A stretch of DNA of 32,000 nt from Desulfobulbus propionicus DSM 2032 (GTDB lineage Bacteria > Desulfobacterota > Desulfobulbia > Desulfobulbales > Desulfobulbaceae), in assembly GCF_000186885.1 (NCBI RefSeq), contig NC_014972.1, forward strand, positions 3,570,001-3,602,000, read 5' to 3'. A model generated the notes under the pieces. That model was not told the DNA's origin. It ran no database searches and saw nothing but the letters and a program-made list of their open reading frames with translations. Both the position numbers and the translations under genes were made by a program. Position 1 is the first letter of the stretch, and every line of letters starts with the position of its first letter. This document shows positions 2,260-32,000 of the stretch, in pieces.

Positions 2260-2386
2260 CCTTTGCTCTCCTGTGATGGTTGGTTATTTCTCGTGAACAC
2301 AGAGGCAAAGCGGCACCCTCCTGAGCAAGGAAGCAATTTCCTTGCGATGCGCATCCCTGTATCCTCGACAGTCGTGGCACAATTGG

Positions 2387-2568: not shown

Positions 2569-2584
2569 CACATTGATCATTCTG

Positions 2585-3808
2585 TTACGGCATGGTTGTT
2601 TCCTCCTGATCACGCATGGTGCATGCAGGGGTGGCCCCGGCTGAGCCCAGCGTTTCCATACTCCGCCATTTTTCCGCAAACCCCAGGGCAAGTGCCCGGC
2701 AGGTGAGATGGAGAAAGGCCTGGTTATCGGTCTGCCGGCAGGTTGGCGCCAGGGTCTGGCGATAGTGGTCCAATCGGCAATAATCACCGCTGACGGCACA
2801 AGCCGTCTGCGCGGCATAGGCGGCCATGATCTCACTCCAGCAGGTCCTGGGCAGCACGCCCCAGGCAATTTTGTCGCGCAGATGCATCAGGGCGGCCACT
2901 GCGGCCACGGTGAGCGGATCATGTTCAAAGGCGAGGAAATTGGCGCGCAGCAGATCCGCCTGATCCTGATCCAGGAAGGCGCAGATTTCGTCGGCCAGCC
3001 CGGCGCGATTGATGCCGAAGCGTTCCAGATGGATCTTGAGCGAACATTGCCCGGCCGGGGTGAGGTTGTTCTGCCGGGCCAGGGTACCCTTGATCGCCTC
3101 AAAGACGGCACGTCCGATCAGTTCGCCGAGCTTGGCGTGCTTGCCGGCACTGGTCAGGAGCGGTCCATTACCCTCCATGGCCGCCACCGCAATCTGATCG
3201 GTGCCAGTGCCGGTGGCCAGGCCATCGGAGTAGCGGGAGTTGACCGCCAGTTCCTGGAGCACTGCGGTTTTGGCCTCGGTGGCGGTCATGATGCAGCGGG
3301 TCAGGGCACCGGGGATGAGCGGCTGGCTGATAAAGAGCAGGGTGTTAATGGTGCCGGGGCCAGGGATGGTTTCCGCCGGCGGCAATCGTTCAAAACCCTC
3401 CGCAGTTTCCACCACTGAAGCCGGGTCACCGACCCTCCCGGCATTGCCCTCGACGCCGCCGGTACAGACAGCCGCCACGGTGAGATCGCGAAACTGCTGC
3501 ACCGCGATGCAGGCATGGTGCATGTTGGCCGCTGTACCCAAGGTGGCGCAGGCCTCGGCCTCCAGGTTGTGCCGCTCGCAGATGGAACGGCGGTAGGCCA
3601 GAGGATCACGATAGGCCATGGAAGGCAGACGATGGCAGTGCCCGGCCGGTTCACAACTCTGGTGGTTGTAGAGGCAGGTCAGATCGGTACGCAATCCCCC
3701 TGCCACCCGGCAGGTGGAGAGCACGCTGTGCGGCTTGAGGAAGCGGGCATAGATGATCTTTTCTTCGCGGTGGAGTTCCACGCCGTTGTAGAAGGTGTCG
3801 ATGAGCAT
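2585..3808 (-). CDS. cbiZ: Adenosylcobinamide amidohydrolase CbiZ (cytoplasmic form) with ~150-aa C-terminal extension
   Basis: 407 aa with no signal peptide. CbiZ motifs are GTINTLLFIS, IMTATEAKTAVL, ATGTGTDQIAV and GKHAKLGELIG. The C-terminal ~150 residues are helical and unassigned. Confidence 0.88.
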   Translation of the reverse strand: MLIDTFYNGVELHREEKIIYARFLKPHSVLSTCRVAGGLRTDLTCLYNHQSCEPAGHCHRLPSMAYRDPLAYRRSICERHNLEAEACATLGTAANMHHACIAVQQFRDLTVAAVCTGGVEGNAGRVGDPASVVETAEGFERLPPAETIPGPGTINTLLFISQPLIPGALTRCIMTATEAKTAVLQELAVNSRYSDGLATGTGTDQIAVAAMEGNGPLLTSAGKHAKLGELIGRAVFEAIKGTLARQNNLTPAGQCSLKIHLERFGINRAGLADEICAFLDQDQADLLRANFLAFEHDPLTVAAVAALMHLRDKIAWGVLPRTCWSEIMAAYAAQTACAVSGDYCRLDHYRQTLAPTCRQTDNQAFLHLTCRALALGFAEKWRSMETLGSAGATPACTMRDQEETTMP

Positions 3809-14210: not shown

Positions 14211-14211
<1 letters not shown>

Positions 14212-18449: not shown

Positions 18450-19231
18450 GGCATCACCAGACCACGAAAGGGGCCAATATCAGGTAGGCAGCTTAAGCAA
18501 AGGACAACCAGGCCACCCAGACCAACGAAGATGGCCCTTGCCTGCTGGCTCCAGGTTTTGCTGAGGTGAAGATGGAGGACGCAGGCATAAAAGAACCAGC
18601 CCGCCATGGTCAGGGTCAGGGCCGGATCCTCCCAGACCACCGGCGTACCCCAGCCCAGATAGCACCAGAGTTCGCCGCAGAACATGGAAGCCGTCCACAG
18701 TCCGAATCCCAGCGCGGCCCAGCGCAGGGACTTATGCAGGGCAACCGTGGGTCGCAGACCATCGATCCACCTGTCGCTCAGGGGCCAGACGCACAGGGCC
18801 CAGGCGGCGCTGATGACACAGCTTGCCTTGGCGAAGAGGGCAAACCAGAGAAACCCATGACTGAGCAGGGTCTTGGACTTGAGAAAGGGCAGATAAAAAT
18901 CCTTGGGGAAAGCGAGAGACGTGACCACCAGAGCAACAAGCAGCGCAAGGACAAGCCGCCAGAGCATGCGCTCGCCCGGCTCTGAGCCGTTGCCGATACA
19001 CAAGGCCAGCAGCCCCAGGCAAAGCGGCAGCGCCACGGCGCCGAGATGCATCGGCAACATCGGCCAGGCCTGGGTATAACGAAGGGCAACAATCACCAGG
19101 TTGCATCCCAGGGCCGGCAGCAGCAGAATCCGCGAAAGGAATACCCACCGCTGCGGCAGGAAGGCGGCCATCAGCGAGGTCAGATAACAGAGTCCGGCGC
19201 AGAGCCATGTTGTCTGGGTCAGGTGGTTCAT
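18446..19231 (-). CDS. CcsA/ResC-family (cytochrome c assembly-type) membrane protein with degenerate WWD motif
   Basis: Start re-called to ATG 19231 (MNHLTQTTW...). The track's 19447 start would run through the riboswitch terminator. 261 aa and polytopic. The WWD-like segment is GELWCYLGWGTPVVWEDPALTLTMAGWFFYACVLHLH, with flanking His residues (SHGFLWF, LHLH). Confidence 0.8.
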   Translation of the reverse strand: MNHLTQTTWLCAGLCYLTSLMAAFLPQRWVFLSRILLLPALGCNLVIVALRYTQAWPMLPMHLGAVALPLCLGLLALCIGNGSEPGERMLWRLVLALLVALVVTSLAFPKDFYLPFLKSKTLLSHGFLWFALFAKASCVISAAWALCVWPLSDRWIDGLRPTVALHKSLRWAALGFGLWTASMFCGELWCYLGWGTPVVWEDPALTLTMAGWFFYACVLHLHLSKTWSQQARAIFVGLGGLVVLCLSCLPDIGPFRGLVMP

Positions 19232-19421
19232 ACTTCTACCCCCGAAATAACGGGGAGATGAAGCGACAGCCTGCGCATGGCGGCAGGACTCCGACAGGGG
19301 TGGAAATGATGAACAGAGATGGGTATGACCTGAAGGTGTTGCATGGCTCCTCGCACACGGGTTCGGTGGTGGAGTCAACAACGGGGAGAAGGGGGCCACG
19401 GCCTGCGGTTGGTGGGCGGGC

Positions 19422-19464
19422 AAAAAAAAATCCCGGATCGAATACAATAAATTCGATCCGGGAT
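19422..19464 (-). terminator. Intrinsic terminator forming the expression platform of riboswitch no.2
   Basis: Minus strand reads ATCCCGGATCGAAT-ttattgt-ATTCGATCCGGGAT followed by T9. That is a perfect 14-bp stem (19430-19443 / 19451-19464) plus a U-run (19422-19430). Confidence 0.8.
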
Positions 19465-19536
19465 AGCCCTATTTATCCGCAGAAATATATCAGATTACCG
19501 GGTACGCCGCCGTCCACGCAGTCGTCTCCAAACATC

Positions 19537-19699
19537 CATTCAGGCAGGTCTTCTGACTTCCGGCTCATCCTACTAACTGCGTCTTCCCAACCCTTCTAGG
19601 GTCAGTGACTTTGGTGCAGCGTTCGTCCCCGGTCACAGCGGCGGGCCCGTCCCCGATTTACGCGGGGTTCCCTCTTGCGTTCTTGCGAACACCTGAATG
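19537..19699 (-). promoter_or_regulatory. Cobalamin (B12) riboswitch aptamer no.2
   Basis: P1 is cattcagg / cctgaatg. The core reads agaGGGAAccccGCGtAAAtCGGggaCGGgCCCGCcGCTGT, GTCACTG and GGGAAG, with B12 box AGTCAGAAGACCTGCC (revcomp of 19543-19558). Confidence 0.9.
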
Positions 19700-19704
19700 T
19701 GCAA

Positions 19705-19735
19705 TGCATAAAACAGATACACCGGGCAAAGTCAA
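19705..19735 (-). promoter_or_regulatory. Candidate sigma70-type promoter for riboswitch no.2 operon
   Basis: Minus strand reads TTGACT (19735-19730), N19, TATGCA (19710-19705), then 6 nt before the P1 strand ATTCAGG. The other two riboswitch cassettes show the same -10/6 nt/ATTC..CAGG layout. The spacer is long, so confidence is low. Confidence 0.3.
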
Positions 19736-20005: not shown

Positions 20006-20917
20006 TTACAAATGGGCCATGGCCACCTTGAGCTGCGCAATCCACATGTCGACAATGGCATCAACCTCACCCAGACCCTTCATCACCGGCACGCTCTCGA
20101 TGCCGGCTTTGGCGAGCTGACTTTTCCAGGAGTCGGGCTCGTCGCCGGCCATGTCGTTCATAGCATGGTCGCCAGCTACGGTCATAAAGGGAATGAGATA
20201 GGCTTTTTTGATCTTCTTGGCCATCAGCATGTCACGGATCTCTTCAAAAGTTGGGTGGCCTTCAACGGTGCCAACATAGAGGTTGGCATCCATCTGCTGC
20301 GCCTTATACATCAGGGCGCTGTACATGGCATCCGTGGGATGATGGGTGCCGTGGCCCATGAACACCACTGCCTCACCCGCCTTGCGCTCCTTGGGCACGA
20401 CCTTCGTGGTGATGATCTTTAGTGCCTGCTCCATGGTCTCGTCGCTGATCAGCAGCGGCAGGGAGACTTTCACCTGCTCGATGCCGCCGACCATCTGACC
20501 AAAAAGGCGGGCATTGGCATTGATCTCATGGAACTCGGCACCGGGGATCATGTGTAATGACTGCACCGCCACCTTGGTGTAGCCTTCGTCCATCAACCGG
20601 GCCAGGGCCATCTCCGGGGAGTCGATCTGCTTGCCCTCTTCTTTGGCCAGCTTTTTGCGGATGATGTTCGAAGTATAGGCCCAGCGCACCTCGGTGCCGG
20701 GGAAGGCTGCCTTGACTCGCTTCTCGATATTGGTAAACGAGGCCTGGGCCTTTTCCACACTGGTGCCGAAGGTCACCAGGAGGATGGCGATTTTATCCTC
20801 TTTTTTCTTACCGTGCTCCATGGCCTTGGCGGTTGCGGCCTGGAAACAGACCGCAACCAAAGCGGCAACGGCTACGGCCATCATTTGTTGTACCAGTCGT
20901 TGAATGTGCATGTTCAT
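20006..20917 (-). CDS. cbiK: Sirohydrochlorin cobaltochelatase CbiK with N-terminal signal peptide (periplasmic CbiK type)
   Basis: Start re-called to ATG 20917 (RBS aaaggagaaaATG). The track's 453-aa ORF is an out-of-frame run through tonB. Signal peptide is MNMHIQRLVQQMMAVAVAALVAVCFQAATAKA. CbiK motifs are ILLVTFGTS, VVFMGHGTHH and PFMTVAGDHA. Confidence 0.9.
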   Translation of the reverse strand: MNMHIQRLVQQMMAVAVAALVAVCFQAATAKAMEHGKKKEDKIAILLVTFGTSVEKAQASFTNIEKRVKAAFPGTEVRWAYTSNIIRKKLAKEEGKQIDSPEMALARLMDEGYTKVAVQSLHMIPGAEFHEINANARLFGQMVGGIEQVKVSLPLLISDETMEQALKIITTKVVPKERKAGEAVVFMGHGTHHPTDAMYSALMYKAQQMDANLYVGTVEGHPTFEEIRDMLMAKKIKKAYLIPFMTVAGDHAMNDMAGDEPDSWKSQLAKAGIESVPVMKGLGEVDAIVDMWIAQLKVAMAHL

Positions 20918-20996: not shown

Positions 20997-21745
20997 TTAT
21001 CCTTCCAGTTTGAAGGTGATGGTCTGTTCCACCAGGGCTTTGACGGCCACGCCGCCTTTGGTGCCTGGTCGAAATCGCCAACCGGAGATACATCGCAATA
21101 CGGCTTGCTCAAACACTCCTTCTGGATCGGCGTCCAACACAGCGACCTTGTCCACTTGCCCCTGCTCATCGACCACGAATTTGACCTTGATCCAGCCCTC
21201 GATGTTACGGCGCTTGGCGGCTGGAGGATAGACTGGTGGAGCCTTTGCAACCGCAGCCAATGGGCCATCAAGCTGACCGACAGTATAGATGCCGCCCCCA
21301 CCCCCACGTGCGCTTTCTCCCTGGGCGGAGCTCGCGGAGGGAGTTGCCGCCGAGGCCGCAGCGGCACTTACATTACTCGTCGACACCGAGGATGTCGTGC
21401 CTTGAGGTTGCATTTGCGGCGAACTGGCGGCCACCGGGACTGTCTCCACAGGTGTTTTTTGTTCTTCAACAGGTTTCTTTTTACCACAGGTGGTGGCGAC
21501 TTTTTCGCCACCGGCTTGGGCATGTTTTTCTTCTTGACCGGGGCAGGCGCTTTCGAGGCCGGAGGCGAAGCAGGAACAGCTTGCGGTGGTCCAGCCTCTG
21601 GAGGACCTGATGCCTGCAGAATGGAAAAGTCCAAAGCCACCGGTAGGCGTACCGGCGGGGTGTGCTGACTGATGGTCACGGCTGCGAGAAAAAACATCGC
21701 ATGTACGAGCAGGGAAAACTGGGTAGCTTTGATTTGTCGGGTCAT
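20997..21745 (-). pseudogene. tonB: TonB energy transducer, reading frame interrupted by an apparent 1-nt frameshift
   Basis: ORF 21368-21745 encodes the N-terminal TM and Pro/Lys-rich region (...APAPVKKKNMPKPVAKKSPPPVV). ORF 20997-21449, in another frame, encodes the linker and TonB C-terminal domain (...YPPAAKRRNIEGWIKVKFVVDEQGQV...). Adding one A to the A5 run (plus-strand T5 at 21478-21482) joins them as ...PPPVVKKKPVEEQKTPVETVPV.... The total length of 749 nt is not a multiple of 3. Confidence 0.8.
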
Positions 21746-22806: not shown

Positions 22807-22878
22807 AGCCCTATTTATCCGCAGAAATATATCAGGTACCGGGGTACGCCGCCGTCCACGCAGTCGTCTCCAAACATC

Positions 22879-23044
22879 CATTCAGGCAGGTCTTCTGGCT
22901 TCCGGCTCATCCTACTGACTGCGTCTTCCCGACCTTTTCTCAAGGTCAGTGACTTAAGGTGCAGCGTTCGTCCCCGGTCACAGCGGCGGGCCCGTCCCCG
23001 AATCGCACGGGGTTCCCTCTTGTGTTCTTGCGAACACCTGAATG
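22879..23044 (-). promoter_or_regulatory. Cobalamin (B12) riboswitch aptamer no.3 (near-duplicate of no.2)
   Basis: It has the same P1 (cattcagg/cctgaatg) and the same core as no.2. The B12 box is AGCCAGAAGACCTGCC. GTCACTG and CCCGCcGCTGT are present. Confidence 0.9.
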
Positions 23045-23049
23045 CTGGA

Positions 23050-23080
23050 AGGATAGAAACTATAGCTCCTAAAATGTCAA
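23050..23080 (-). promoter_or_regulatory. Candidate promoter for riboswitch no.3 / exbB operon
   Basis: Minus strand reads TTGACA (23080-23075), N19, TATCCT (23055-23050), then 6 nt before ATTCAGG. It is bracketed by a 9-bp inverted repeat, GGATAGAAA (23051-23059) / TTTCTATCC (23090-23098). Confidence 0.3.
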
Positions 23081-23258: not shown

Positions 23259-23286
23259 TTGACTTTCACTGCAAACCGTCTAAACA
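23259..23286 (+). promoter_or_regulatory. Candidate promoter for riboswitch no.4 / plus-strand operon
   Basis: TTGACT (23259-23264), N16, TAAACA (23281-23286), then 6 nt before the P1 strand ATTCTCAGG at 23293. Confidence 0.4.
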
Positions 23287-23292
23287 CAGCCC

Positions 23293-23456
23293 ATTCTCAG
23301 GCGCTCGCAAGAGCTTAATAGGGAACTCCGTGTGAATCGGAGACAGGCCCGCTGCTGTATTCGGGGACGACCGCTGCATTTTGAGTCACTGACCTTGTTG
23401 TCGGGAAGACGCAGCCAGTAGGATGATCCGTGAGTCAGAAGACCTGCCTTGAGAAT
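23293..23456 (+). promoter_or_regulatory. Cobalamin (B12) riboswitch aptamer no.4
   Basis: P1 is attctcagg / ccttgagaat. The core reads aatAGGGAActccGTGtgAAtCGGagaCAGgCCCGCtGCTGT, GTCACTG and GGGAAGA, with B12 box AGTCAGAAGACCTGCC (23434-23449). Confidence 0.88.
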
Positions 23457-23516
23457 TGAGCGAATGCTTCGTGGACGGAGGCGCGCTCGCACCATATCCA
23501 CGGATAAAAAAGGGAC

Positions 23517-23606: not shown

Positions 23607-24029
23607 ATGCAACGATGTTTCGCTGTTCTGATCGCTTTCCTGTTCGTTGTTTTTACATCCCCCCAGGCATCTGCGGTGGCCGCCACGACTGAAGACGCCG
23701 CCATTACTGCCAGCAGCTGGCTCACGCTCGTCGATGGTGGCTATTACGTGCAGAGTTGGCAAACTGCCTCCCGATTTTTTCGTTCTGCCATTGCCGAGGC
23801 CACCTGGGCCGCCTCCCTGCAAGCAGCACGTTCGCCCTTGGGCAGCCTGGTCCGCCGCGAACAACGCGCAAGCCAACTGGCGACCAGCCTACCCGGCGCA
23901 CCTGACGGCGAGTATTGCATCCTCAGTTTTGCCACCGAATTGACCAACAAAAAAACCGCCGTCGAAACCCTGACCATGATGCGTGAAGCAGACGGTCAAT
24001 GGCGGGTTGCCGGCTACTTCATCAAGTAG
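23607..24029 (+). CDS. Exported small protein, DUF4019-like
   Basis: 140 aa, RBS aggaggatggtATG, signal peptide MQRCFAVLIAFLFVVFTSPQASA. The body (SWQTASRFF...ATWAASLQAARSPLG...LPGAPDGEYCILSF...GQWRVAGYFIK) matches my recollection of the DUF4019 family. Confidence 0.75.
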   Translation: MQRCFAVLIAFLFVVFTSPQASAVAATTEDAAITASSWLTLVDGGYYVQSWQTASRFFRSAIAEATWAASLQAARSPLGSLVRREQRASQLATSLPGAPDGEYCILSFATELTNKKTAVETLTMMREADGQWRVAGYFIK

Positions 24030-24056: not shown

Positions 24057-26099
24057 ATGCGCCCCCTTGCTTTGTTCACCCATGTCCTGCTTGTGCTGCT
24101 GTTGTGTGCAGTTGCGGTCTGCGACACCCAGGCTGGCCAATATCCGCATGCCTTCAAGGATAGCCTCGGCCGCGAGGTATCCCTGACCAGCCCGCCGCAG
24201 CGAGTGGTCTGCCTGCTCAGCTCGGTGACCGATCTGCTCTTTGAGCTGGATCGCACTGAGTTCCTGGTGGGGTTGAGCCGCCAGGACTTGCTCAATCACA
24301 GCGCCTTGCGGGTACCGAGCATGGGCAGCTTTTTCCAGCCCGATCTGGCAGCGATCTCGAACGCCAAACCGGATCTGATCATTGCCTCCACCTCGCAGCA
24401 GGCCATGCTGCAGCCGTGGTTGGATGATCCGCAGCAGCACACCAAGGTGCTCTTTTTCCGGGAAGGCTCGCTTGAGGAAGGCTTTGCCCGCATGGCCCAG
24501 ATCGGTACCCTGGTGGAACGCGAACAACAGGCGCAGGCCATCATCAATCGCAACCGCGAGCAGATCGGGCTGGTGCAGGCCCGTCTCAAACAGATGCCGC
24601 CGGAGCAGCGCAAACGGGTGGCTCGGGTGGTGGCCGGAAATGATGGTATCTCATGCCCCGGCGATGATTCCTTCCAAAACGAGATGATCGCCGCTGCCGG
24701 TGGCATCGCGCCGCAATGGGCCAAGAACGGTGGTTTTGTGGAGGTGGATGTAACCAGCTGGCAGGCCTTTAACCCGCAAATGATTTACGGCTGCGATCGC
24801 AACATGGAGGCGGTCCACAAGATGCTTGCCCAAGAAGGGTGGAAAGAGGTCGAAGCGGTGCGCAACCGGGCCATCACCCAGCTGCCCTGCTCCATCGCCT
24901 GCCAGGTGACGCCCCATGTGGGGGCCGCAGTGCAGTGGCTGGCAGCCTCCTTCTATCCGGAACTGATGGCCGATGTCGCCAAGGCGGTCAGCAACAATAC
25001 GGTGCAAGGCGAGCGGCCACTCAACCTTGATCTGCCCTATGTGGCCTCCGCCAAAGTGGTCAATCACCGGGTCAACGATGCCGACTTCAAATCCCTGGTG
25101 CTCCGCTTCACCACCCCCCAGACGGTACTCTCCACCACCGAAGGCAATGCGCAGGCCGTGCAGGCGGTGGGCAATACCTCCGTGCCCATGCATGCCAGCC
25201 TTGGCCACATGGCCTTTGGTGTCGAGCAGGTACGCAAGGATGTGGCCGCCAACCTCGGCTATACGCCGGCCACCTACACCGGCATGATGACCGGCGCCGA
25301 CATGGACAACCTCTCAATGCAGGTGCGGCGCGAGGGTGATCTGGAGGCCGTAGCCCTGGTGACCGCCGGAACGCGCGGTAACGCTCAACGGATGTCAAAG
25401 GATGTTGGCTATGCCCACGCCTCGGGCACCATCAACATCCTCCTGCTCACCAACCGCACACTCGCATCCGAGGCCATGGCCCGGGTCATCATCACCGCCA
25501 CCGAGGCCAAGACCGCCGCTCTCTTGGATCTCGATATCCGCAGCACCGCACTGCCCTGGCCCTACCCGGCCACCGGCACCGGTACGGACTCGATGATCGT
25601 GGTCCAGGGTGAAGGCCCCTTGGTCCGTTACACCGGCGGCCACGCCAAGATCGGCGAGTTGATCGCCAAGGCGGTCCACGCCGGGGTGACCGAGGCTCTC
25701 ATCGGCCAAAACGGCATCAAGGCCGGACGAAACGTCTTGCAACGACTCGATGAACGCAAACTGAGTTTGGAGCGACTGGTGCAACTCTACCCCTCCACCC
25801 TGCCGCCCCAGGAACTGGAACGCAGGCTGGAGCGAGCCCTGGAGGAGCCGGCCATTGCCGGCTTCATCGAAACCGCCCTGGCCATCAGCGATGCGTCTGG
25901 CAGCGGCCAGATTGCCAATTTGACCGCCTTTGAGCGGATGTGTTCCGCCATGAGCGAGCAGCTGACCGGCACCACCACCCTTGTCCCGGCAACTATCAAC
26001 ACCCCGGATCTCCTGCCACCGGTCATGGCCAGGGTCTTTGGCCTGCTGGTGGCCGGGTTGAGCACAGGTCCTACCACTTCCAAGGAGTCCCAACCATGA
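24057..26099 (+). CDS. Fusion protein: signal peptide + BtuF-like periplasmic binding domain + CbiZ adenosylcobinamide amidohydrolase domain
   Basis: 680 aa with N-terminal MRPLALFTHVLLVLLLCAVAVCDTQAG. Residues ~30-300 are class III binding protein-like (RVVCLLSSVTDLLFELD, NAKPDLIIAS). Residues ~330-590 carry the CbiZ motifs GTINILLLTN, IITATEAKTAALLDL, ATGTGTDSMIVV and GGHAKIGELIA. A ~90-aa helical tail follows. The stop overlaps the next ATG (ATGA). Confidence 0.85.
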   Translation: MRPLALFTHVLLVLLLCAVAVCDTQAGQYPHAFKDSLGREVSLTSPPQRVVCLLSSVTDLLFELDRTEFLVGLSRQDLLNHSALRVPSMGSFFQPDLAAISNAKPDLIIASTSQQAMLQPWLDDPQQHTKVLFFREGSLEEGFARMAQIGTLVEREQQAQAIINRNREQIGLVQARLKQMPPEQRKRVARVVAGNDGISCPGDDSFQNEMIAAAGGIAPQWAKNGGFVEVDVTSWQAFNPQMIYGCDRNMEAVHKMLAQEGWKEVEAVRNRAITQLPCSIACQVTPHVGAAVQWLAASFYPELMADVAKAVSNNTVQGERPLNLDLPYVASAKVVNHRVNDADFKSLVLRFTTPQTVLSTTEGNAQAVQAVGNTSVPMHASLGHMAFGVEQVRKDVAANLGYTPATYTGMMTGADMDNLSMQVRREGDLEAVALVTAGTRGNAQRMSKDVGYAHASGTINILLLTNRTLASEAMARVIITATEAKTAALLDLDIRSTALPWPYPATGTGTDSMIVVQGEGPLVRYTGGHAKIGELIAKAVHAGVTEALIGQNGIKAGRNVLQRLDERKLSLERLVQLYPSTLPPQELERRLERALEEPAIAGFIETALAISDASGSGQIANLTAFERMCSAMSEQLTGTTTLVPATINTPDLLPPVMARVFGLLVAGLSTGPTTSKESQP

Positions 26100-29000
26100 A
26101 CCGCCTTTGTCTGCTCGTGCTGCTCCTGCTCGGTTGGGTGCAGTCGGCCCCGGCAATGCCCACCGCCAAGGTGGCTATCCTCGAAATCGATATCAACGGC
26201 TATCAGTTGCAGCAGGCTATTGGAGCCCTTGAACTGCCGCCCGCCATCGAAACCCGATTCTTCACCCTGGAGGACCTGGAGCACGATCCTCGTGCCAAGG
26301 ACTTTGTGCGCGAATCCTCGGTGGTCTTGGTCAACGTCATGGCCAACCAACTGGCCAGCTACATGATCGATCAACAACTGCTGACCGGCCGCGCGGTCTA
26401 TGGCCTCAACCAGGCCAGCAACCCCGAAGAACTCACCAAGAAAGGTTTTGTGTTTGACCGCGAAATCATGGCCTATTACCGCCACATGAGCCTGGCCAAT
26501 ATGGTCAACCTGGTACGACTGGCCGCACACCGCCACATCGACCAGGCCATCAGCTATCAACCGGTCGAGATCCTGCCCGAAATCTGCCTCCATCATCCCG
26601 ATGCACCGCGCACCTTCACCACGGTTGCTGACTACCTCGCCTGGGACCGGCAGCGGCCGGGATACCAGGCCGACCGGCCCCGGGTGGCCATCCTCGAATA
26701 CAACAACAGCCTCAAGGTGGGCCAGGTGGAGGCGGTGGACAAACTCATCCGCCGCCTGGAGGCTGGTGGCCTTGCCGTACTGCCCTGCTTCGGGTCGCTG
26801 CAGCAAACCCTGACCCAATACCTCCAGCCCATTGACGGCAAGCCGCCGGTGGATCTGGTGCTGGCCTTTACCCTCAAGTTCGCCTCAGCTCTCAACGAGG
26901 AGGTTCGGATTGCCCTGGAGCGGCTGAATGTACCACTGTTCAACGTCATCTCCACCTATGCCGAGACCGTGGATGAGTGGCGGCAGAGCCCTGTGGGGAT
27001 CAGTCCGATGGCCTCTGCCTGGGCCGTGGCTACGCCCGAGTTTTCCGGCGCCATTGAGCCGACGGTGCTGCTGGGCAAGCAGCAACTGGTCGATCCGCTC
27101 AGTGGCCGCAAGCTCTATGTGAGCGAGACCGTGGATGAAGCGATCGATTTTCTCATCCCCCGGCTGCACAACTGGGCCGCCCTGCAACGCATGGCCAACC
27201 CCGACAAAAAGGTGGCTATCCTCTACTACAACCACAGTCAAGGTAAGCAGAACATCGCCGCCGCCTACCTCAACGTCTTCCGCAGCCTGCAAACCATCCT
27301 TGCCCGCATGCAGGCCGAGGGCTACCGCATCGACAAGCCCGAACGACTGAACGAGGAACAGATTCAACAACTGGTGCTGGCCAGCGGCCGCAACATCGGC
27401 TCCTGGGCGCCGGGCGAACTCGACAACCTGCTGGCCTCCGGCGGGGTGGAGCAGGTGAGCATCGAGGAGTACACCACCTGGTTTGAACGGTTGCCCGGAG
27501 CCTTCAAAAAACCGGTGATCGCCCAATGGGGCCAGCCCAAGGACTGCGCCATCATGACCAGAGACGGAAAGCTGGTCTTCCCCATGGTCAAGCTGGGCAA
27601 CGTGGTGCTGCTGCCGGAACCGGCGCGCGGTTGGTCCGATGATCCGATGAAGCTCTACCACGATACCACCCTCTACCCGCACCACCAGTACATTGCCGCC
27701 TATTTGTGGCTCAAGGAAAAATTCCACGCCGACGCCATGATCCACCTCGGCACCCATGCCACCTACGAATGGCTGCCGGGCAAGCAAGCCGGGCTGGCGC
27801 CCTCGGACCCGCCGGAGATCATGGTCGGTACCATCCCTAACATCTACCCCTACATCGTTGACGATGTCGGCGAGGGGGTGCAGGCCAAGCGGCGCGGCCG
27901 GGGGGTAATCGTCGACCACCTCACCCCGCCGATGAAGGAGGCCGACCTGCACCATGAATACAAGCAGCTGGGTGATCTCTTCAAGCAGTATGAGACGGCC
28001 CGCACCGTTGGCAGCGAAACCGTGCCTGAGTATCGGAACAAGATCGGCCAACTGGTGGAGAAGATGGGCATTGCCAAGGATCTGCGCCTGACCACCATGG
28101 ATGAGGCAGCCATGGAAAAAATCCATCTCTACCTCCACGAGATCGACGACAACTCGCTGCCCTTTGGCCTGCACACCTTTGGCAAGGCCTACGCCGAGGA
28201 TGCCACCGCCTCGACCATTGAGCTCATTCAAAAGCAAAATCCCCAGGCCGATGACGACAAGATTCGCAAGGACCTGGAGGGCTCGCCCCTGCGGGAGATG
28301 AACAACCTCATCCGCGGCTTGAACGGCGAATATGTGCCGCCGGGCGAGGGCAACGATCCGCTGCGCAACCTGGCCGCCATCCCCACGGGCAAGAACTTTT
28401 ACGGATTTTCCCCGGCCAAGGTGCCATCCAAGGCGGCCTGGGCCGTGGGCAAACGTGCTGCCGAGGAGATGATCCGCGCCAAACAGGAGAAGGAGGGCCA
28501 CTATCCGGAAAAGGTGGGCGTGGTGCTCTGGGCCACCGAGACCACTCGCAACGAGGGGGTGCATGAGGCGACCATCCTCTGGTTGATGGGGGTGGAGCCG
28601 GTTTGGGATGCAAGCGACCGGGTCACCGGCAGTCGGGTGGTGCCCGGCCGGGAACTGGGACGGCCGCGCATCGACGTGCTGATCAATCCCTCCGGCTTGT
28701 ATCGCGACATGTATCCGGAAAAGCTGTTGTTCCTCGACGAGGCGGTGCAGCAGGCCCTGGCCCAGACCGATATTGAAAACTTCCTCGCCCGCAACCAGGT
28801 GACGATCAAAAAAGCCCTGCTGGCCAAGGGCATGAGTGAGCAGGAGGCCGATGAGCAGTCGCGCTTTCGCATCTTCACCGAAGCGGTCGGTTCCTATGGC
28901 AACGGGGTCGAGGAGATGGCCGGCGCCTCCGGGCTCTGGGATTCGGATGAGTCGATAAGCAACATCTACCTCAACCGGGTGCAGTTCGCCGTCGGCCGGG

Positions 29001-30067
29001 GCAAGTGGGCCGTGCCGGTGAAGGAGACCTTCACCGAGAACCTGCGCGGTGTGGACACCGCTGTGCATTCTCGTTCCAGCAATGTCATCGGCATCATCGA
29101 TACCGACGATTTCTTCATGTACCTGGGCGGCATGTCGCTGGCGGTGAAGAATGTGCGCGGTCAGGCCCCGGACACCCTGGTCACCATGCACCGCAAGAAG
29201 GATGAGCTGGGAGTGGAGGACGTGGCCAAGACCATCGGCATGGAGATGCGCACCCGCTACCTCAACCCCCAGTGGATCGAGGGCATGAAGCGCGAGAATT
29301 ACGGCGGCGCTCGGCAGATGGCCGACTTTGCCGAAAATCTCTGGGGCTGGCAGGTAACGGTGCGTGACGCGGTCGGCGCCGACAAGTGGCAGCAGATTTT
29401 CGAGGTCTACGTGGAGGATAAGTACGGCCAGGGCTTGGCCGAATTTTTCGATAAGCACAACCCCTGGGCCTACCAGTCGATGACCGCACGTATGCTGGAG
29501 GCGGTGCGAAAGGGCTACTGGCAGGCGGACGAACAGGTGACCAAAAAACTGGCCGCCGAGTATGCCACCAACGTCATCCAGCGCGGCGTGGCCTGCTGCG
29601 ATCATACCTGCAACAACCCCATGCTCAACCAGATGGTGGTCAACCTCATCTCCATGCCCGGCGTGCTCAGCCCGCAGATGGTGGAACAGTTCAAACTGGC
29701 CATCGAGCAGATGGCCAAGAAAAGTTTAGAGCAGCAGACCGCCGAACGGGCGGAACTGATCACCAGATTGAACGAGGTTCCGGCCGGGGAGCAAAAGCAG
29801 CAGGCGACCGAACCGCCACCGCAGCAACAGCCTGAGCAGACGAAGTCCAACCAGGAGATGCAACAACCCGAGCCGGTGCCGGAGAAGGAGGCCAAGGCGA
29901 CCGAAGACGGCAAGGCCCCGGAAAACGTCCAGGGCTACAAGATGGAGGAGATTAAAACCAAGGATGAATCCACCGAGCTGAGTTCCTCGGGTATCCAATG
30001 GGCGGCGAGTCTGTTTGTGCTGGTGGTGCTGGCGCTGTTTGTGTGGGGCTCGCGGCGGAGATGGTGA
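26096..30067 (+). CDS. CobN/Mg-chelatase-family protein, exported form with signal peptide and C-terminal membrane anchor (HmuS-like architecture)
   Basis: Start re-called to ATG 26096 (MNRLCLLVLLLLGWVQSAPA/MPTAK). 1323 aa. CobN motifs are HLGTHATYEWLPGK, NIYPYIVDDVGEGVQAKRR and DHLTP. The C-terminus has a P/Q/E/K-rich linker, then SSSGIQWAASLFVLVVLALFVWGSRRRW (TM helix plus Arg cluster) at the extreme end. Confidence 0.9.
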   Translation: MNRLCLLVLLLLGWVQSAPAMPTAKVAILEIDINGYQLQQAIGALELPPAIETRFFTLEDLEHDPRAKDFVRESSVVLVNVMANQLASYMIDQQLLTGRAVYGLNQASNPEELTKKGFVFDREIMAYYRHMSLANMVNLVRLAAHRHIDQAISYQPVEILPEICLHHPDAPRTFTTVADYLAWDRQRPGYQADRPRVAILEYNNSLKVGQVEAVDKLIRRLEAGGLAVLPCFGSLQQTLTQYLQPIDGKPPVDLVLAFTLKFASALNEEVRIALERLNVPLFNVISTYAETVDEWRQSPVGISPMASAWAVATPEFSGAIEPTVLLGKQQLVDPLSGRKLYVSETVDEAIDFLIPRLHNWAALQRMANPDKKVAILYYNHSQGKQNIAAAYLNVFRSLQTILARMQAEGYRIDKPERLNEEQIQQLVLASGRNIGSWAPGELDNLLASGGVEQVSIEEYTTWFERLPGAFKKPVIAQWGQPKDCAIMTRDGKLVFPMVKLGNVVLLPEPARGWSDDPMKLYHDTTLYPHHQYIAAYLWLKEKFHADAMIHLGTHATYEWLPGKQAGLAPSDPPEIMVGTIPNIYPYIVDDVGEGVQAKRRGRGVIVDHLTPPMKEADLHHEYKQLGDLFKQYETARTVGSETVPEYRNKIGQLVEKMGIAKDLRLTTMDEAAMEKIHLYLHEIDDNSLPFGLHTFGKAYAEDATASTIELIQKQNPQADDDKIRKDLEGSPLREMNNLIRGLNGEYVPPGEGNDPLRNLAAIPTGKNFYGFSPAKVPSKAAWAVGKRAAEEMIRAKQEKEGHYPEKVGVVLWATETTRNEGVHEATILWLMGVEPVWDASDRVTGSRVVPGRELGRPRIDVLINPSGLYRDMYPEKLLFLDEAVQQALAQTDIENFLARNQVTIKKALLAKGMSEQEADEQSRFRIFTEAVGSYGNGVEEMAGASGLWDSDESISNIYLNRVQFAVGRGKWAVPVKETFTENLRGVDTAVHSRSSNVIGIIDTDDFFMYLGGMSLAVKNVRGQAPDTLVTMHRKKDELGVEDVAKTIGMEMRTRYLNPQWIEGMKRENYGGARQMADFAENLWGWQVTVRDAVGADKWQQIFEVYVEDKYGQGLAEFFDKHNPWAYQSMTARMLEAVRKGYWQADEQVTKKLAAEYATNVIQRGVACCDHTCNNPMLNQMVVNLISMPGVLSPQMVEQFKLAIEQMAKKSLEQQTAERAELITRLNEVPAGEQKQQATEPPPQQQPEQTKSNQEMQQPEPVPEKEAKATEDGKAPENVQGYKMEEIKTKDESTELSSSGIQWAASLFVLVVLALFVWGSRRRW

Positions 30068-30135
30068 GGTGGTCACTGCAAAGGAGCGATGACACCGGGG
30101 TGGTTCGTGCTTGGGGAAAGAATACCCAGCTCCCG

Positions 30136-30162
30136 GTCATTTCGACCAAAGGGAGAAATCTC
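30136..30162. repeat. Half-copy of the gtcat..tcga....gagaaatctc repeat seen at 5597-5624
   Basis: gtcatttcgaccaaagggagaaatctc versus gtcatgtcgagcgcagcgagaaatctc. About 20 of 27 positions are shared by eye, and it is intergenic. Confidence 0.4.
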
Positions 30163-30361
30163 TGTACTCCGGCATCACAGCGGTGGGCAGGCATACTGCC
30201 GCCTGCGCCACCCTACGAGATCGATCATGCACGTTTTGATCGTTCCCATACTGGAGCGTAGAAAACAAACCCTGATTTCTGCGCCTCTGCGGGAGAACAA
30301 AAATGATCACCATACAGAGTTCAACAGCCTTGTTTTGCAACCCTAGAAAAGGAGAACCACA

Positions 30362-31108
30362 ATGCTCTACAAATCGCTGATTCTAGGTGTGCTCTTCAGT
30401 ATCGGTATCTTTGCCGGCAAAAGCGGCATTGGCCTGGCCTATCTGCTTGGGCGCACGCCATCCTGGCGAGGCAAGGCCCTGCGTCTGCTTGGTTTTGCCC
30501 TGCTCTACGCCCTGGTGTTCGCATTGGCGGCCTGGGGCCTGCGCCTCCTTGATCCCCTGGCGCACCTGGGGACTATCCAGCGTTTCCTGCAGTCCGGAAT
30601 GCAGGCGCACCTATTGATGGCCGGGGTGATGATTGCCTGGGGGCTGGCCTTGCTGCGCAAACCCCATCAGCACGGCAGCGCCAGTCGCGGCTGGCTGCTT
30701 TTGACCCTGCCCTGTCCGGTCTGCGCCACGGTGATCGTCTTCAGCCTCGCCTTTGGCCTGTCACTCTTTCCCGACCACTTTTCCCAGGTGGCCGGCGGTC
30801 TCTACCTGGCCTTTCTTGTTATCAGCCTGATGGTGATGGGCTTGATGCTGGGGTTGGGTAAAATGACCGCGCAGTCTGCGGAAACCCTGCTCGGCGGGGC
30901 CATGGTGCTGCTCGGTACCTACTTCCTGCTCTCCATGGCCATCCTCCCCCAATTCACCGATGTCGATGCGATCTACCGCATGGCCCATCACCAGGTTCCC
31001 GGTCAACAGCAGGATCTGCGTGCCCTGCTGCCGCTGGTAGTCCTCACTTTATCAACCTTTCTGGCCGGTTTTGGCCGTACCCACCAAAAAATACGGAGTT
31101 CGCACTAA
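30362..31108 (+). CDS. Polytopic membrane protein with intramembrane CPVC motif (DUF2162-like predicted transporter)
   Basis: 248 aa, RBS aaaaggagaaccacaATG, about 7 hydrophobic segments, LLTLPCPVCATVIVF within a TM. The family name comes from recollection of CobN-linked DUF2162 genes and needs HMM confirmation. Confidence 0.6.
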   Translation: MLYKSLILGVLFSIGIFAGKSGIGLAYLLGRTPSWRGKALRLLGFALLYALVFALAAWGLRLLDPLAHLGTIQRFLQSGMQAHLLMAGVMIAWGLALLRKPHQHGSASRGWLLLTLPCPVCATVIVFSLAFGLSLFPDHFSQVAGGLYLAFLVISLMVMGLMLGLGKMTAQSAETLLGGAMVLLGTYFLLSMAILPQFTDVDAIYRMAHHQVPGQQQDLRALLPLVVLTLSTFLAGFGRTHQKIRSSH

Positions 31109-31713
31109 TGGATATCGGCGCCCTGCTGCAAACCTTCATCTACCTGGTTTCCTCCTCCCTGCTCTACCCGGTATTGCTGGCACTCAGCCTGCTGGTGCTG
31201 GTGGTCATCGTCCAGGCCGGTGGTTTCTTTGCCGAGTGGCTGGAACGGGCACGGCTCAAACCCTGCCCTTCCCAGAACCTGCCCCGGCTCTTGCAAACCG
31301 GCCAGGCCCAGGGGATGATCTCGCACCGGGTCAACCACTACTTAAAGATCCTCACCGAGATCCGCGACCAGCCGGGAAATCATGGTATCGCCGTGGAAAA
31401 CCTGCTGCAATCCACCACCCTGGAGTTGTGGAAATCCATGGACCGGCTGCGCATCCTGGTGCGCACCGGCCCGTCGCTTGGCCTACTCGGCACCCTCATC
31501 CCCATGGGCACCGGCCTGGCCTCCCTGGGTCAGGGCGACATGACCAAGCTCAGTTCAGATCTGGTCATCGCCTTCACCACCACCGTGGTCGGCATGGCGG
31601 TGGGTACGGTGGCCTTCTGTTTCTACACCCTGCGCCGCCGTTGGCTGGAAGAGGATATCAAAAACATGGAACTGGCCACCGAACTGCTGCTCAATGGGCC
31701 GGTGGAGCACTGA
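31108..31713 (+). CDS. MotA/TolQ/ExbB-family proton-channel protein (non-canonical, CobN-associated)
   Basis: 201 aa. The TAATG overlap links it to the previous gene. It has an N-terminal TM plus a C-terminal pair with the signature GPSLGLLGTLIPMGTGL and VIAFTTTVVGMAVGTVAF. Confidence 0.8.
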   Translation: MDIGALLQTFIYLVSSSLLYPVLLALSLLVLVVIVQAGGFFAEWLERARLKPCPSQNLPRLLQTGQAQGMISHRVNHYLKILTEIRDQPGNHGIAVENLLQSTTLELWKSMDRLRILVRTGPSLGLLGTLIPMGTGLASLGQGDMTKLSSDLVIAFTTTVVGMAVGTVAFCFYTLRRRWLEEDIKNMELATELLLNGPVEH

Positions 31714-31714
31714 G

Positions 31715-32000
31715 ATGCACTACTTCCGCCCGCGCAGAACGAGCAAATCCCGCAAGGGTTTCAGCGACCCGGCCTTCCGTGACGACGATCCCATGACCGG
31801 AGTGGCCAACCTCTTTGACATTGGCCTGGTGTTCATTGTCGGCCTGCTACTGACCCTGTTCAACGCCTACCGGCTCCAGGATCTGTTCGACAGCAAATCG
31901 GAGATGACCATCATGAAACAGCAGGCCTCGGGCGAGATGGAGATCATCGTCAAGAAAGGCACCGAAATCAAGGCCTCGCGTGTCACCCAAGAGGCGGCCC
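31715..32000 (+). CDS. Small single-TM protein (DUF2149/ExbD-like partner), truncated by the window end
   Basis: ATG at 31715 lies 1 nt after the previous stop and the frame is open to 32000. Translation is MHYFRPRRTSKSRKGFSDPAFRDDDPMTGVANLFDIGLVFIVGLLLTLF.... The ANLFDIGLVF plus TM segment resembles the ExbD/DUF2149 N-terminus. It is not in the ORF track because there is no stop. Confidence 0.55.
   Translation, partial: MHYFRPRRTSKSRKGFSDPAFRDDDPMTGVANLFDIGLVFIVGLLLTLFNAYRLQDLFDSKSEMTIMKQQASGEMEIIVKKGTEIKASRVTQEAA

Follow-up and report, generated by a model that had tools for sequence, protein, structure and literature searches.

A riboswitch-headed gene of Desulfobulbus propionicus joins a class III binding domain to CbiZ behind a predicted Sec leader: a candidate enzyme for corrinoid remodelling before import

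The window analysed here, a stretch of 32,000 nucleotides from Desulfobulbus propionicus DSM 2032, contains an operon that is headed by a cobalamin riboswitch aptamer and includes a gene in which a substrate-binding domain is fused to the amidohydrolase CbiZ (Table 1). The first gene of the operon encodes a DUF4019 protein with a Sec-type leader (MQRCFAVLIAFLFVVFTSPQASA, followed by VA); such a gene lies 5' of the fusion gene in Desulfobulbus loci only. The fusion gene starts at an ATG that is the first possible start past an upstream stop, and a Shine-Dalgarno sequence, AGGAG, stands 7 nt 5' of it. Downstream follow genes for a CobN-family protein resembling the heme dechelatase HmuS, a DUF2162 protein and two proteins of ExbB/MotA-like and ExbD-like character. 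The island is otherwise rich in B12 genes; it also encodes an exported CbiK, a leaderless CbiZ paralogue and a BtuCD transporter.

Table 1. Positions of the operon, of the parts of the fusion protein and of related genes within the window
Feature	Position	Strand	Evidence or remark
Leaderless (cytoplasmic-type) CbiZ paralogue in the B12 island, used as comparator	2585..3808	-	Pfam CbiZ, E 5e-59
btuCD	14211-16504	-	With its own lipoprotein substrate-binding protein (BtuF2)
Cobalamin riboswitch aptamer heading the operon	23283..23465	+	Rfam RF00174, 103 bits against a gathering score of 31.5
DUF4019 gene, first gene of the operon, Sec-type leader	23607..24029	+	PF13211, E 1.3e-35
Fusion gene (680 aa + stop)	24057..26099	+	Open reading frame, Pfam, homologues
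Leader, aa 1-26	24057..24134	+	Sequence; lone modelled helix aa 2-23
Class III (cluster A) substrate-binding domain, aa about 30-310, Pfam core aa 50-277	24144..24986	+	PF01497, Foldseek
CbiZ amidohydrolase domain with N-terminal beta extension, aa 312-552, Pfam core aa 350-544	24990..25712	+	PF01955
C-terminal helical domain, aa 553-680, common to leaderless CbiZ	25713..26096	+	High-pLDDT helices
Exported, C-terminally membrane-anchored CobN-family protein (HmuS-like)	26096..30067	+	Pfam CobN-Mg_chel
DUF2162 polytopic membrane protein	30362..31108	+	PF09930, E 3.6e-36
ExbB/MotA-like proton-channel protein	31108..31713	+	PF01618, E 5.4e-12
ExbD-like small single-TM protein, runs off the window	31715..32000	+	Translation MHYFRPRR...GVANLFDIGLVFIVGLLLTLF

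The original prediction described a single 680-residue reading frame with a hydrophobic leader, a class III binding-protein domain and a complete CbiZ domain, and reading frame, Pfam matches and motifs all bear this out. Peripla_BP_2 (PF01497) is matched with E 1.3e-20 and 74 bits against a cut-off of 27.5, and CbiZ (PF01955) over the whole of its profile (1-191 of 191) with E 1.3e-46 and 159.4 bits against a cut-off of 27; the motifs GTINILLL, ITATEAKTAA and ATGTGTD are all present in the translation. The NCBIfam model for CbiS (NF038002), a bifunctional CbiZ/alpha-ribazole phosphatase, stays at 104 bits, below its cut-off of 250, and its match extends to residue 624, the part in common being CbiZ alone. 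The full-length AlphaFold2 model has a pLDDT of 91.8 and a pTM of 0.89, and the CbiZ domain model alone a pLDDT of 93.4. The C-terminal helical domain is the same as that of the leaderless paralogue of D. propionicus, and its residue D612 is invariant in the fused and leaderless CbiZ families. A hydrophobic helix at residues 655-670 was considered as a membrane anchor and rejected: the model places it confidently inside the C-terminal domain, where it is probably packed rather than membrane-spanning.

Could the junction of the two domains be an artefact of assembly? The fusion protein matches a protein of D. propionicus DSM 2032 with 100% identity. The same two-domain architecture, at the same length, recurs in at least 120 clusters with 38-100% identity to it and in every one of the 79 related loci collected from species-representative genomes, whose labels are nearly all Desulfobacterota. 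A chimera and a chance reading frame are both excluded on these grounds, the source itself being a complete chromosome. The worry about a chimeric join that accompanied the original prediction is thus dispelled, and the combination of Peripla_BP_2 with CbiZ proves to be a recurrent one. It is found across Desulfobacterota orders as well as in metagenomic clusters numbering in the hundreds; at the 50% identity level, about 50 representatives cover both the binding and the CbiZ domain.

The architecture also occurs in modified forms. Variants of about 960 residues hold CbiZ between two periplasmic binding domains (SBP-CbiZ-SBP), and relatives devoid of the binding domain carry CbiZ behind a leader or, as a lipoprotein form, a lipobox; the relatives of both these kinds are flanked by a TonB receptor on one side and by exbB-exbD-tonB on the other. 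One protein of 1948 residues, P0261, reads SBP-CbiZ-HmuS-like-TM: its junction between CbiZ and the HmuS-like part is free of the HmuS-like leader, and the HmuS-like ectodomain ends in a TM segment with a basic tail. Because this triple fusion is a singleton on a single 8 kb contig, we use it as supporting evidence only.

The N-terminus of the fusion protein (MRPLALFTHVLLVLLLCAVAVCDTQA, followed by GQ) has the tripartite form of a Sec leader, with MRP as n-region, LALFTHVLLVLLLCAVAV as h-region and CDTQA as c-region, and its sequence suggests probable cleavage of the signal peptidase I type between TQA and GQ. By a home-made heuristic of hydrophobicity and charge, used in place of SignalP, leader-like N-termini were called in 102 of 120 fusion homologues and in none of 120 leaderless CbiZ paralogues. 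Within the window the same heuristic flags the known outer-membrane and periplasmic proteins and several inner-membrane proteins, and no soluble cytoplasmic ones. Most of the 18 homologues without a call are N-terminally truncated or fail the charge criterion alone while keeping a hydrophobic N-terminus; what is conserved is a physicochemical feature and not a sequence. Export as a lipoprotein or through the Tat pathway was rejected, the fusion protein having neither a lipobox nor a twin-arginine motif (among the 120 homologues, one lipobox-like and two RR-like sequences occur). Since the Sec-type leader is conserved and no membrane segment lies between the binding and CbiZ domains, both domains are predicted to be extracytoplasmic, in agreement with the placement originally proposed, and export of the protein is, at the level of sequence, well supported.

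The cytoplasmic location typical of characterised CbiZ enzymes is therefore not what the predicted leader of the fusion protein indicates. That the protein nevertheless stays in the cytoplasm or faces it, its leader being a non-exporting anchor or its start mis-called, we find very hard to believe: the h-region is admittedly rather long, at 18 residues, and the leader call comes from a heuristic and not from a dedicated predictor, but the start is the first possible one and has a good Shine-Dalgarno sequence, the next Met would cut into the binding domain, and the charge distribution favours an N-in/C-out orientation. The leader is, moreover, conserved in kind across the fusion family and absent from cytoplasmic paralogues, the family of the fused binding domain is periplasmic by definition, and in the variants CbiZ is tied to a second binding domain, a lipobox or an ectodomain with a TM segment at its end.

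Does the CbiZ domain retain what an enzyme of this family needs? An alignment of 43 fusion sequences (the D. propionicus domain and 42 homologues) with 12 leaderless CbiZ sequences has 29 columns invariant across both groups, and all 29 are kept in the fusion, including S359, N373, T412, T436, N442, R445, T458, N460, E483, K485, S496, T506, T508, D511, H529 and Q551. Because every family-invariant residue is retained, the domain looks active, or is at least not obviously dead, and the objection that it might be an inactivated CbiZ is weakened as far as the residues can tell. The domain model matches amidohydrolases of the DmpA/NylC/BapA type; a search of the PDB by sequence returned no CbiZ structure.

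A non-catalytic role has nonetheless to be weighed, in which CbiZ would merely hold a corrinoid and the fusion would serve in the periplasm as a chaperone or buffer with two sites, binding corrinoids and passing them on. The rigid packing of CbiZ on the binding protein in the model, with its pTM of 0.89, and the resemblance of the SBP-CbiZ-SBP forms to relay chains are in keeping with such a role, which we consider improbable, as the preservation of every cross-family invariant polar residue over about 35-100% identity would be unexpected had catalysis been lost, and the Pfam CbiZ match is of full length.

CbiZ is known as a cytoplasmic adenosylcobinamide amidohydrolase, employed in cobinamide salvage by archaea and in cobamide remodelling by Rhodobacter sphaeroides, and the characterised enzymes reportedly act on adenosylated substrates. 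These known enzymes share with the fusion protein the full-length PF01955 domain and the invariant residues, but have neither its Sec leader nor its N-terminal binding domain. The leaderless paralogue of the window begins with MLIDTFYNGVELH, in which no leader is seen, and has 31% identity with the CbiZ domain of the fusion, leaderless paralogues generally showing about 25-31%. Its C-terminus displays, by eye and unaligned, an A..AL..G pattern resembling residues 655-670 of the fusion protein.

The BtuF identity that the original prediction gave to the N-terminal domain is not borne out. The domain shares 22% identity with E. coli BtuF, and no BtuF model appears among the NCBIfam matches of the fusion protein, the best of which (a PGF-CTERM SBP, FecB and IsdE) are all far below cut-off. 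Foldseek ranks proteins that bind heme or siderophores as its nearest solved folds (E 1e-18 to 1e-13, with target TM-scores of at most 0.85 against class III binders), among them the heme binders ShuT, PhuT, RhuT, BhuT and IsdE. It is a class III binding protein in the general sense, for which the label BtuF is not specifically supported. It shares with BtuF the class III (Peripla_BP_2) fold, an export signal and a B12-regulated context, but its family has three invariant cysteines, C246, C278 and C282, that BtuF lacks, together with a CPGDDSFQNE motif. E. coli BtuF docks on the BtuC dimer through two acidic residues, Glu72 and Glu202, which correspond to Ala98 and Thr233 in an alignment that is tentative at such low identity; the aligned positions are acidic in 39/79 to 50/79 orthologues, and among the 79 their state follows no pattern with respect to HmuS-like or BtuCD context. 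As to the pairing of BtuF with btuCD, the fusion gene lies directly upstream of btuCD in 19 of the 79 loci, and in D. propionicus the two are not adjacent.

The heme binders among the nearest folds, along with the likeness of the neighbouring gene product to HmuS, raise the question of whether the ligand is heme or another tetrapyrrole, the operon serving heme-iron acquisition of the Hmu type and the CbiZ-like domain cutting some other amide. We consider this decidedly improbable. A cobalamin riboswitch stands before the operon, and the same holds, on the same strand, for 7 of the 8 related loci examined; the enzyme domain is a genuine CbiZ, the rest of the island is full of B12 genes, and the heme-ligating His of HmuS is not conserved in the HmuS-like neighbour.

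What, then, is this neighbour? Its ATG overlaps the stop codon of the fusion gene (ATGA) and is served by its own Shine-Dalgarno sequence, so that the two genes are translationally coupled. The protein begins with a leader (MNRLCLLVLLLLGWVQSAPA, followed by MPT) and ends in a TM segment and RRRW; a leader is present in 31 of 31 orthologues, and a C-terminal hydrophobic segment with a basic tail in all 29 with a complete C-terminus. It scores higher against the HmuS heme dechelatase 9d26 (548 bits) than against CobN (429) or ChlH (418), whereas for the other CobN of the window, which lies beside ChlI/ChlD, the order is reversed and CobN is closest. HmuS converts heme into protoporphyrin IX and Fe(II), with Met-79 and His-254, the latter in a His-Gly-Arg motif, as heme ligands and His-538 as the catalytic residue (PMC12583661). 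The GTH(538) motif is conserved in the HmuS-like protein, the His-Gly-Arg motif aligns to Phe-Ala-Ser and is not, and the Met-79 region falls outside the alignment.

The surroundings recall the Hmu operon of Bacteroidota, with its HmuR receptor, HmuS dechelatase and HmuT/U/V membrane proteins (PMC12583661). The fusion gene is likewise followed by genes for a CobN-family protein that is exported, bound to the membrane and closest to HmuS, for a polytopic membrane protein and for ExbB/ExbD-like proteins, and most fusion relatives have a TonB-dependent receptor upstream; the fusion operon differs in its cobalamin riboswitch, in having a CbiZ fusion in the place of a hemophore and in the absence of the HmuS heme-ligand motif. 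Among the 79 loci, the fusion occurs together with the HmuS-like gene and DUF2162 in 36, the ExbB-like gene being conserved beside DUF2162, and with BtuCD and no HmuS-like gene in 19; the TonB-dependent receptor is in most loci directly upstream of the fusion, and either BtuCD or the HmuS-like/DUF2162/ExbB-like set lies downstream. A further parallel is the periplasmic CbiK-P of Desulfovibrio vulgaris: there too, as with the exported CbiK of the D. propionicus window, a protein of 'B12-biosynthesis' type is exported in a sulfate reducer, although CbiK-P is a class II chelatase of another family than the CbiZ fusion.

The coupling to the HmuS-like protein and its DUF2162 and ExbB-like companions may signify more than simple remodelling. 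Corrinoids might be dismantled for salvage of cobalt or the macrocycle: CbiZ would strip the loop, the HmuS-like (de)chelatase, perhaps driven by the DUF2162/ExbB/ExbD-like proteins and no ATPase, would then reach the metal, and the cobalt would be released and taken up, by analogy with the conversion of heme by HmuS. The ATGA overlap, the affinity to HmuS that the window's other CobN does not share, the export and membrane anchoring of the HmuS-like protein in all orthologues with complete termini, the adjacency in 36/79 loci with a single joining in one polypeptide, and the exported CbiK of the island are all consistent with salvage, as is the common use of B12 riboswitches in the control of cobalt supply. 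For an enzyme to take the cobalt out of a corrin is, however, chemically demanding, and we know of no case in which it was shown. Since 19 of the 79 loci pair the fusion with BtuCD only, the fusion functions without the HmuS-like gene; the His-Gly-Arg heme ligand of HmuS is absent from the HmuS-like protein, and the triple fusion was seen once, on a single contig of 8 kb. Salvage of this kind is in our estimate unlikely. Its full form, a periplasmic and riboswitch-controlled dismantling in which CbiZ strips the loop, the HmuS-like protein removes or exchanges the cobalt and proton-motive-force components (DUF2162/ExbB/ExbD-like) replace the AAA+ ATPase, appears to us rather unlikely.

We favour, as reasonably likely, the reading of the original prediction, in which the fusion is an exported periplasmic enzyme that cuts the nucleotide loop or aminopropanol arm off captured corrinoids before their import. 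Scarcity of cobalamin would raise expression through the riboswitch, and the protein would be exported by the Sec route and probably processed at its TQA/GQ site. The class III domain would capture a corrinoid brought in through a TonB-dependent receptor of the outer membrane, and the rigidly attached CbiZ domain would hydrolyse the amide between the aminopropanol-phosphate-nucleotide loop and the corrin ring, leaving a product of the cobyric-acid type in the periplasm. This product would pass to a dedicated BtuF/BtuCD importer, which in D. propionicus would be the lipoprotein BtuF2 with BtuCD, encoded on the opposite strand, and elsewhere would involve a second SBP domain, either fused or encoded downstream; the co-transcribed, periplasm-facing HmuS-like protein may be a further recipient. 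The riboswitch and the TonB-receptor/BtuCD surroundings suit a reaction placed between transport across the outer and across the inner membrane. A coupling of CbiZ to uptake was suggested earlier from gene adjacency, and many bacterial cbiZ genes are, like the fusion gene, encoded among B12 transport genes (PMC7733943).

The presence of a leaderless CbiZ in the same organism calls for a reason why there should be a second one in the periplasm. The requirement of the characterised CbiZ enzymes for adenosylated substrates is in tension with a periplasmic enzyme, the periplasm having, to our knowledge, neither an adenosyltransferase nor ATP. The CbiR enzyme of Akkermansia muciniphila and the CobS-dependent remodelling of Vibrio cholerae have the same proposed purpose, the removal of an unwanted lower ligand for rebuilding, although CbiR is of unrelated fold and cuts another bond (phosphoribosyl). 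All cobamide remodelling and cobinamide salvage known to us, whether by CbiZ, CbiR or CobS, takes place in the cytoplasm, after uptake and adenosylation. The cbiR gene, like the fusion gene, is often found beside transport genes, and it has been proposed, as a proposal only and with no exported enzyme described, that CbiR might be coupled to uptake (PMC7733943). Full-text literature searches on CbiZ and cobamide remodelling turned up no account of a CbiZ that is exported or fused. The fusion protein probably cuts corrinoids outside the cytoplasm, a location not known to us from any earlier account of a B12-remodelling enzyme.

If CbiZ is indeed exported in these organisms, editing of B12-like molecules in the periplasm would decide which of them enter the cell, and hence what its riboswitches and enzymes meet, and at least the fusion clade would have to accept substrates that have not been adenosylated inside the cell. 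That the fusion is so tightly linked to an exported HmuS-like (de)chelatase, to an exported CbiK and to ExbB-like proteins points to a set of periplasmic tools for tetrapyrroles that is still largely unexplored; should the dismantling of corrinoids prove true, cobalt or the macrocycle could be harvested from unusable cobamides, and the system would be the first in which an enzyme demetallates a corrin and the first with a class I chelatase driven by the proton-motive force. Extracytoplasmic processing by an exported CbiZ would be part of corrinoid exchange in anoxic sediments, and the fusion family, being widespread in sulfate reducers and syntrophs, could affect the cobamides that circulate in those communities.

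The SBP-CbiZ fusion is encoded by one uninterrupted reading frame with a Shine-Dalgarno sequence (AGGAG) 7 nt 5' of its start codon, in which Pfam places a class III binding-protein domain (SBP; Peripla_BP_2, aa 50-277, E 1.3e-20) ahead of a CbiZ domain covering the whole profile (aa 350-544, E 1.3e-46). The frame and the motifs quoted in the original prediction are all present, which confirms the observation. The encoded protein shows 100% identity to one on a 3.85 Mb contig of D. propionicus DSM 2032. In the whole-chain AlphaFold2 model (pLDDT 91.8, pTM 0.89) aa 2-23 form a lone helix; no hydrophobic segment was found between the SBP and CbiZ domains, and the hydrophobic helix at aa 655-670, confidently modelled inside the C-terminal helical domain, is probably not a membrane span.

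The homologue search returned at least 120 clusters at 38-100% identity; 116 of the 120 listed contain both Pfam domains, mostly within 640-690 aa, and the remaining four are short and apparently truncated. When a single genome was searched for each species, 79 loci matched across both domains, from Desulfobulbales, Desulfobacterales, Desulfatiglandales, Geopsychrobacteraceae, Syntrophobacteraceae, Desulfobacca, Desulfomonilaceae, Desulfarculaceae and Desulfohalobiaceae; a 50%-identity representative library gave about 50 proteins that matched over both domains, and a later search added more than 100 fusion clusters. A chimeric join, which had been named as a possible refutation, is ruled out by the recurrence of the same architecture across these clusters and loci; the domains were joined long ago and selection maintains the arrangement. 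One fusion locus (L004, contig JAIWHJ010000022.1; 52% identity to the query) lies in typical deltaproteobacterial context within a MAG labelled Promethearchaeota, where it is probably a binning contaminant.

The N-terminus of the fusion, MRP followed by LALFTHVLLVLLLCAVAV and then CDTQA, with predicted cleavage before GQ, has the classic n-h-c form, including small -3 and -1 residues, and contains neither a lipobox nor a twin arginine. Homologues keep this form while the sequence varies (for example, LLLVAGPCANIGQA preceding AEYP). A simple heuristic that looks for a hydrophobic stretch of 10 residues, an n-region with net positive charge and a small-x-small motif, and which cannot separate inner-membrane proteins from signal peptides (several inner-membrane proteins of the window score positive), was positive in 102 of the 120 listed fusion homologues and in none of 120 leaderless CbiZ family members. 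The 18 negatives are mostly N-terminally truncated or failed the charge criterion alone; among the window controls, soluble cytoplasmic proteins were negative, and outer-membrane and periplasmic proteins positive.

Three kinds of variant architecture argue independently for an extracytoplasmic CbiZ. Proteins of about 960 aa have the order SBP-CbiZ-SBP. Relatives devoid of the SBP domain still bear either a leader or a lipobox (proteins P0296, P0305, P0315 and P0375; loci L081, 6277-7515, and L082, 1652-2890). P0296, which is nested among the fusions by similarity, has such a segment ending in VLVILLGC ahead of SPG, and its gene belongs to the arrangement BtuF-BtuC-BtuD-TonB receptor-CbiZ-ExbB-ExbD-TonB, after which comes a corrinoid adenosyltransferase gene. 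A singleton of 1948 aa runs leader-SBP-CbiZ-HmuS-like-TM-basic tail, the HmuS-like leader being missing at the junction. The predicted extracytoplasmic location is supported by the conserved leader and the variants, and the same evidence makes a cytoplasmic fusion extremely improbable. Separately, a metagenomic protein of 890 aa (P0376) unites Peripla_BP_2, Plug and a TonB-dependent receptor barrel in one polypeptide, thereby joining a binding protein with an outer-membrane receptor.

Integrity of the CbiZ domain, also claimed at the outset, holds as well: the fusion keeps all 29 columns that are invariant in an alignment of 43 fusion sequences (the window domain and 42 homologues) with 12 leaderless CbiZ, including S359, N373, T412, T436, N442, R445, T458, N460, E483, K485, S496, T506, T508, D511, H529, Q551 and D612. 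The retention of these residues makes it quite unlikely that CbiZ serves here as a non-catalytic holding domain. A sequence search of the PDB found no CbiZ structure. The domain-only model (aa 312-680, pLDDT 93.4) matches NylC, BapA, ThnT and PH0078 (E 2e-5 to 1e-3, probability ~1, with low TM-scores), which are Ntn amidohydrolases of the DmpA/ornithine-acetyltransferase type; its only significant PDB matches are self-processing enzymes of the DmpA/NylC/BapA/ThnT type. The modelled fold suggests that the nucleophile might lie in the invariant ATGTGTD segment, perhaps as a Thr, and raises the question of possible self-cleavage.

Selected features of the window and their coordinates
Feature	Coordinates	Strand	Remark
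Cobalamin riboswitch	2377-2580	-	
Leaderless CbiZ	2585-3808	-	N-terminus MLIDTFYNG
CcsA-like and ResB-like genes	17643-19447	-	
Cobalamin riboswitch	19526-19711	-	
CbiK gene	20006-20917	-	
tonB-like gene	20997-21745	-	two reading frames
Cobalamin riboswitch	22868-23056	-	divergent, back to back with 23283-23465 (+)
Cobalamin riboswitch	23283-23465	+	heads fusion operon
SBP-CbiZ fusion ORF	24057-26099	+	single 680-aa frame from first possible start codon

Behind its riboswitch the operon encodes a leader-bearing DUF4019 protein, the fusion, a CobN-family protein, DUF2162, and ExbB-like and ExbD-like proteins, the last continuing past the window end. The CobN-family gene, whose ATG overlaps the fusion stop (ATGA) and which has its own Shine-Dalgarno sequence, encodes a protein that bears a leader and, just before the residues RRRW, a C-terminal TM; a leader is present in 31 of 31 orthologues adjoining fusions, and a hydrophobic segment with basic tail ends all 29 with a complete C-terminus. 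Among solved structures, the heme dechelatase HmuS is closest to this protein (548 bits versus 429 for CobN), whereas the other CobN of the window, beside ChlI/ChlD, is closest to CobN (769 versus 358 for HmuS). This HmuS-like protein conserves the catalytic GTH motif of HmuS but not its heme-ligating His-Gly-Arg motif. The stretch from the CobN-family gene to the ExbD-like ORF covers 26096-32000 (+). The operon lacks a gene for an AAA+ ATPase partner, which could not act in the periplasm in any case. HmuS is described as a membrane-bound, NADH-dependent enzyme whose heme substrate HmuR delivers into the periplasm; the receptor is thought to draw its energy from HmuU/V of the same operon, which also encodes HmuT, a membrane protein of unexplained role (PMC12583661). 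Proton-motive drive of the HmuS-like protein through DUF2162 and the ExbB-like and ExbD-like proteins is conceivable.

Related loci follow two main layouts. In 36 of the 79 a TonB receptor, (DUF2162, ExbB-like), fusion, HmuS-like protein, (DUF2162, ExbB-like) and sometimes CbiK succeed one another; in 19 the order is TonB receptor, fusion, second SBP (fused or separate), BtuC and BtuD. The other 24 have neither downstream set, many with a TonB-dependent receptor directly upstream. A cobalamin riboswitch lies upstream on the same strand in seven of eight loci tested. The coupling of the fusion and HmuS-like genes makes it attractive to suppose that the two proteins dismantle corrinoids for cobalt salvage, but this is without chemical precedent, the partner is missing in the 19 loci of the second layout, and we consider it rather unlikely. 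In the D. propionicus genome a lipoprotein SBP distinct from the fusion (lipobox LLVLAGC) is encoded together with BtuCD on the opposite strand.

What could the binding domain capture? Pfam and structure matching agree on a class III binding protein, but its closest solved relatives bind heme and siderophores, no BtuF model matched it, and it shares only 22% of its residues with E. coli BtuF; the "BtuF" label is therefore too specific, a functional guess rather than a family assignment. The original interpretation stands as to location and integrity, loses this label, and had overlooked the HmuS-like neighbour. In the low-identity alignment, Ala98 and Thr233 occupy the positions of BtuF Glu72 and Glu202, the BtuC-docking residues; these positions are acidic in 39 and 50 of 79 orthologues, respectively, with no relation to gene context. 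C246, C278 and C282 (24792-24902; YGC and PCxxxC in the C-lobe), absent from E. coli BtuF, are essentially invariant and possibly form a disulfide or ligate cobalt. That the fusion belongs to a heme system is made very doubtful by the cobalamin riboswitches; because of the riboswitch and the fusion to CbiZ, a corrinoid is the most likely ligand.

The four cobalamin riboswitches, all within the 32 kb of the window, appear to control together a B12 island, which includes two TonB receptors, the leaderless CbiZ, an ABC-2 exporter-type pair, ChlI/ChlD/CobN, BtuFCD and CcsA/ResB-like proteins. The CbiK gene, downstream of exbB-exbD-tonB and under the riboswitch at 22868-23056 (-), probably starts at ATG 20917, preceded by an AAGGAG Shine-Dalgarno sequence; its Sec-type leader, MNMHIQRLVQQMMAVAVAALVAVCFQAATAKA before MEHG, predicts export, resembling the periplasmic CbiK of Desulfovibrio vulgaris. 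Between exbD and cbiK, the tonB-like gene is split into an N-terminal TM and Pro-rich part (21745-21368) and a TonB_C-like part (21449-20997). The frame changes beside an A6 run near 21455, which may point to a frameshift, to a sequencing error or to a pseudogene. The CcsA-like and ResB-like genes, of a type associated with cytochrome c assembly and heme export, come immediately after a cobalamin riboswitch and precede btuF-btuC-btuD; this unusual combination might reflect tetrapyrrole handling across the membrane.

Periplasmic corrinoid trimming by the fusion is the best-supported reading. We infer its chemistry and order of steps as follows: a corrinoid brought in by the TonB-dependent receptor would be captured by the SBP domain, the amide to the aminopropanol arm would be hydrolysed by the CbiZ domain, the cobyric-acid-type product would be handed to an SBP/BtuCD importer, and the nucleotide loop would be remade in the cytoplasm. 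The main objection is that characterised CbiZ enzymes are reported to require adenosylated substrates; cobamides released where it is dark and anoxic may retain the upper ligand, or the fusion CbiZ clade may differ. Gene adjacency has already prompted the suggestion that CbiZ is coupled to uptake (PMC7733943); full-text searches on CbiZ and cobamide remodelling turned up no account of CbiZ in fused or exported form. Both domains are already known and two-domain proteins are automatically annotated in databases; the novelty lies in the compartment and gene company of the exported clade. This clade is widespread in Desulfobacterota and riboswitch-controlled, and is linked to TonB receptors, BtuCD and a putative HmuS-like periplasmic (de)chelatase.
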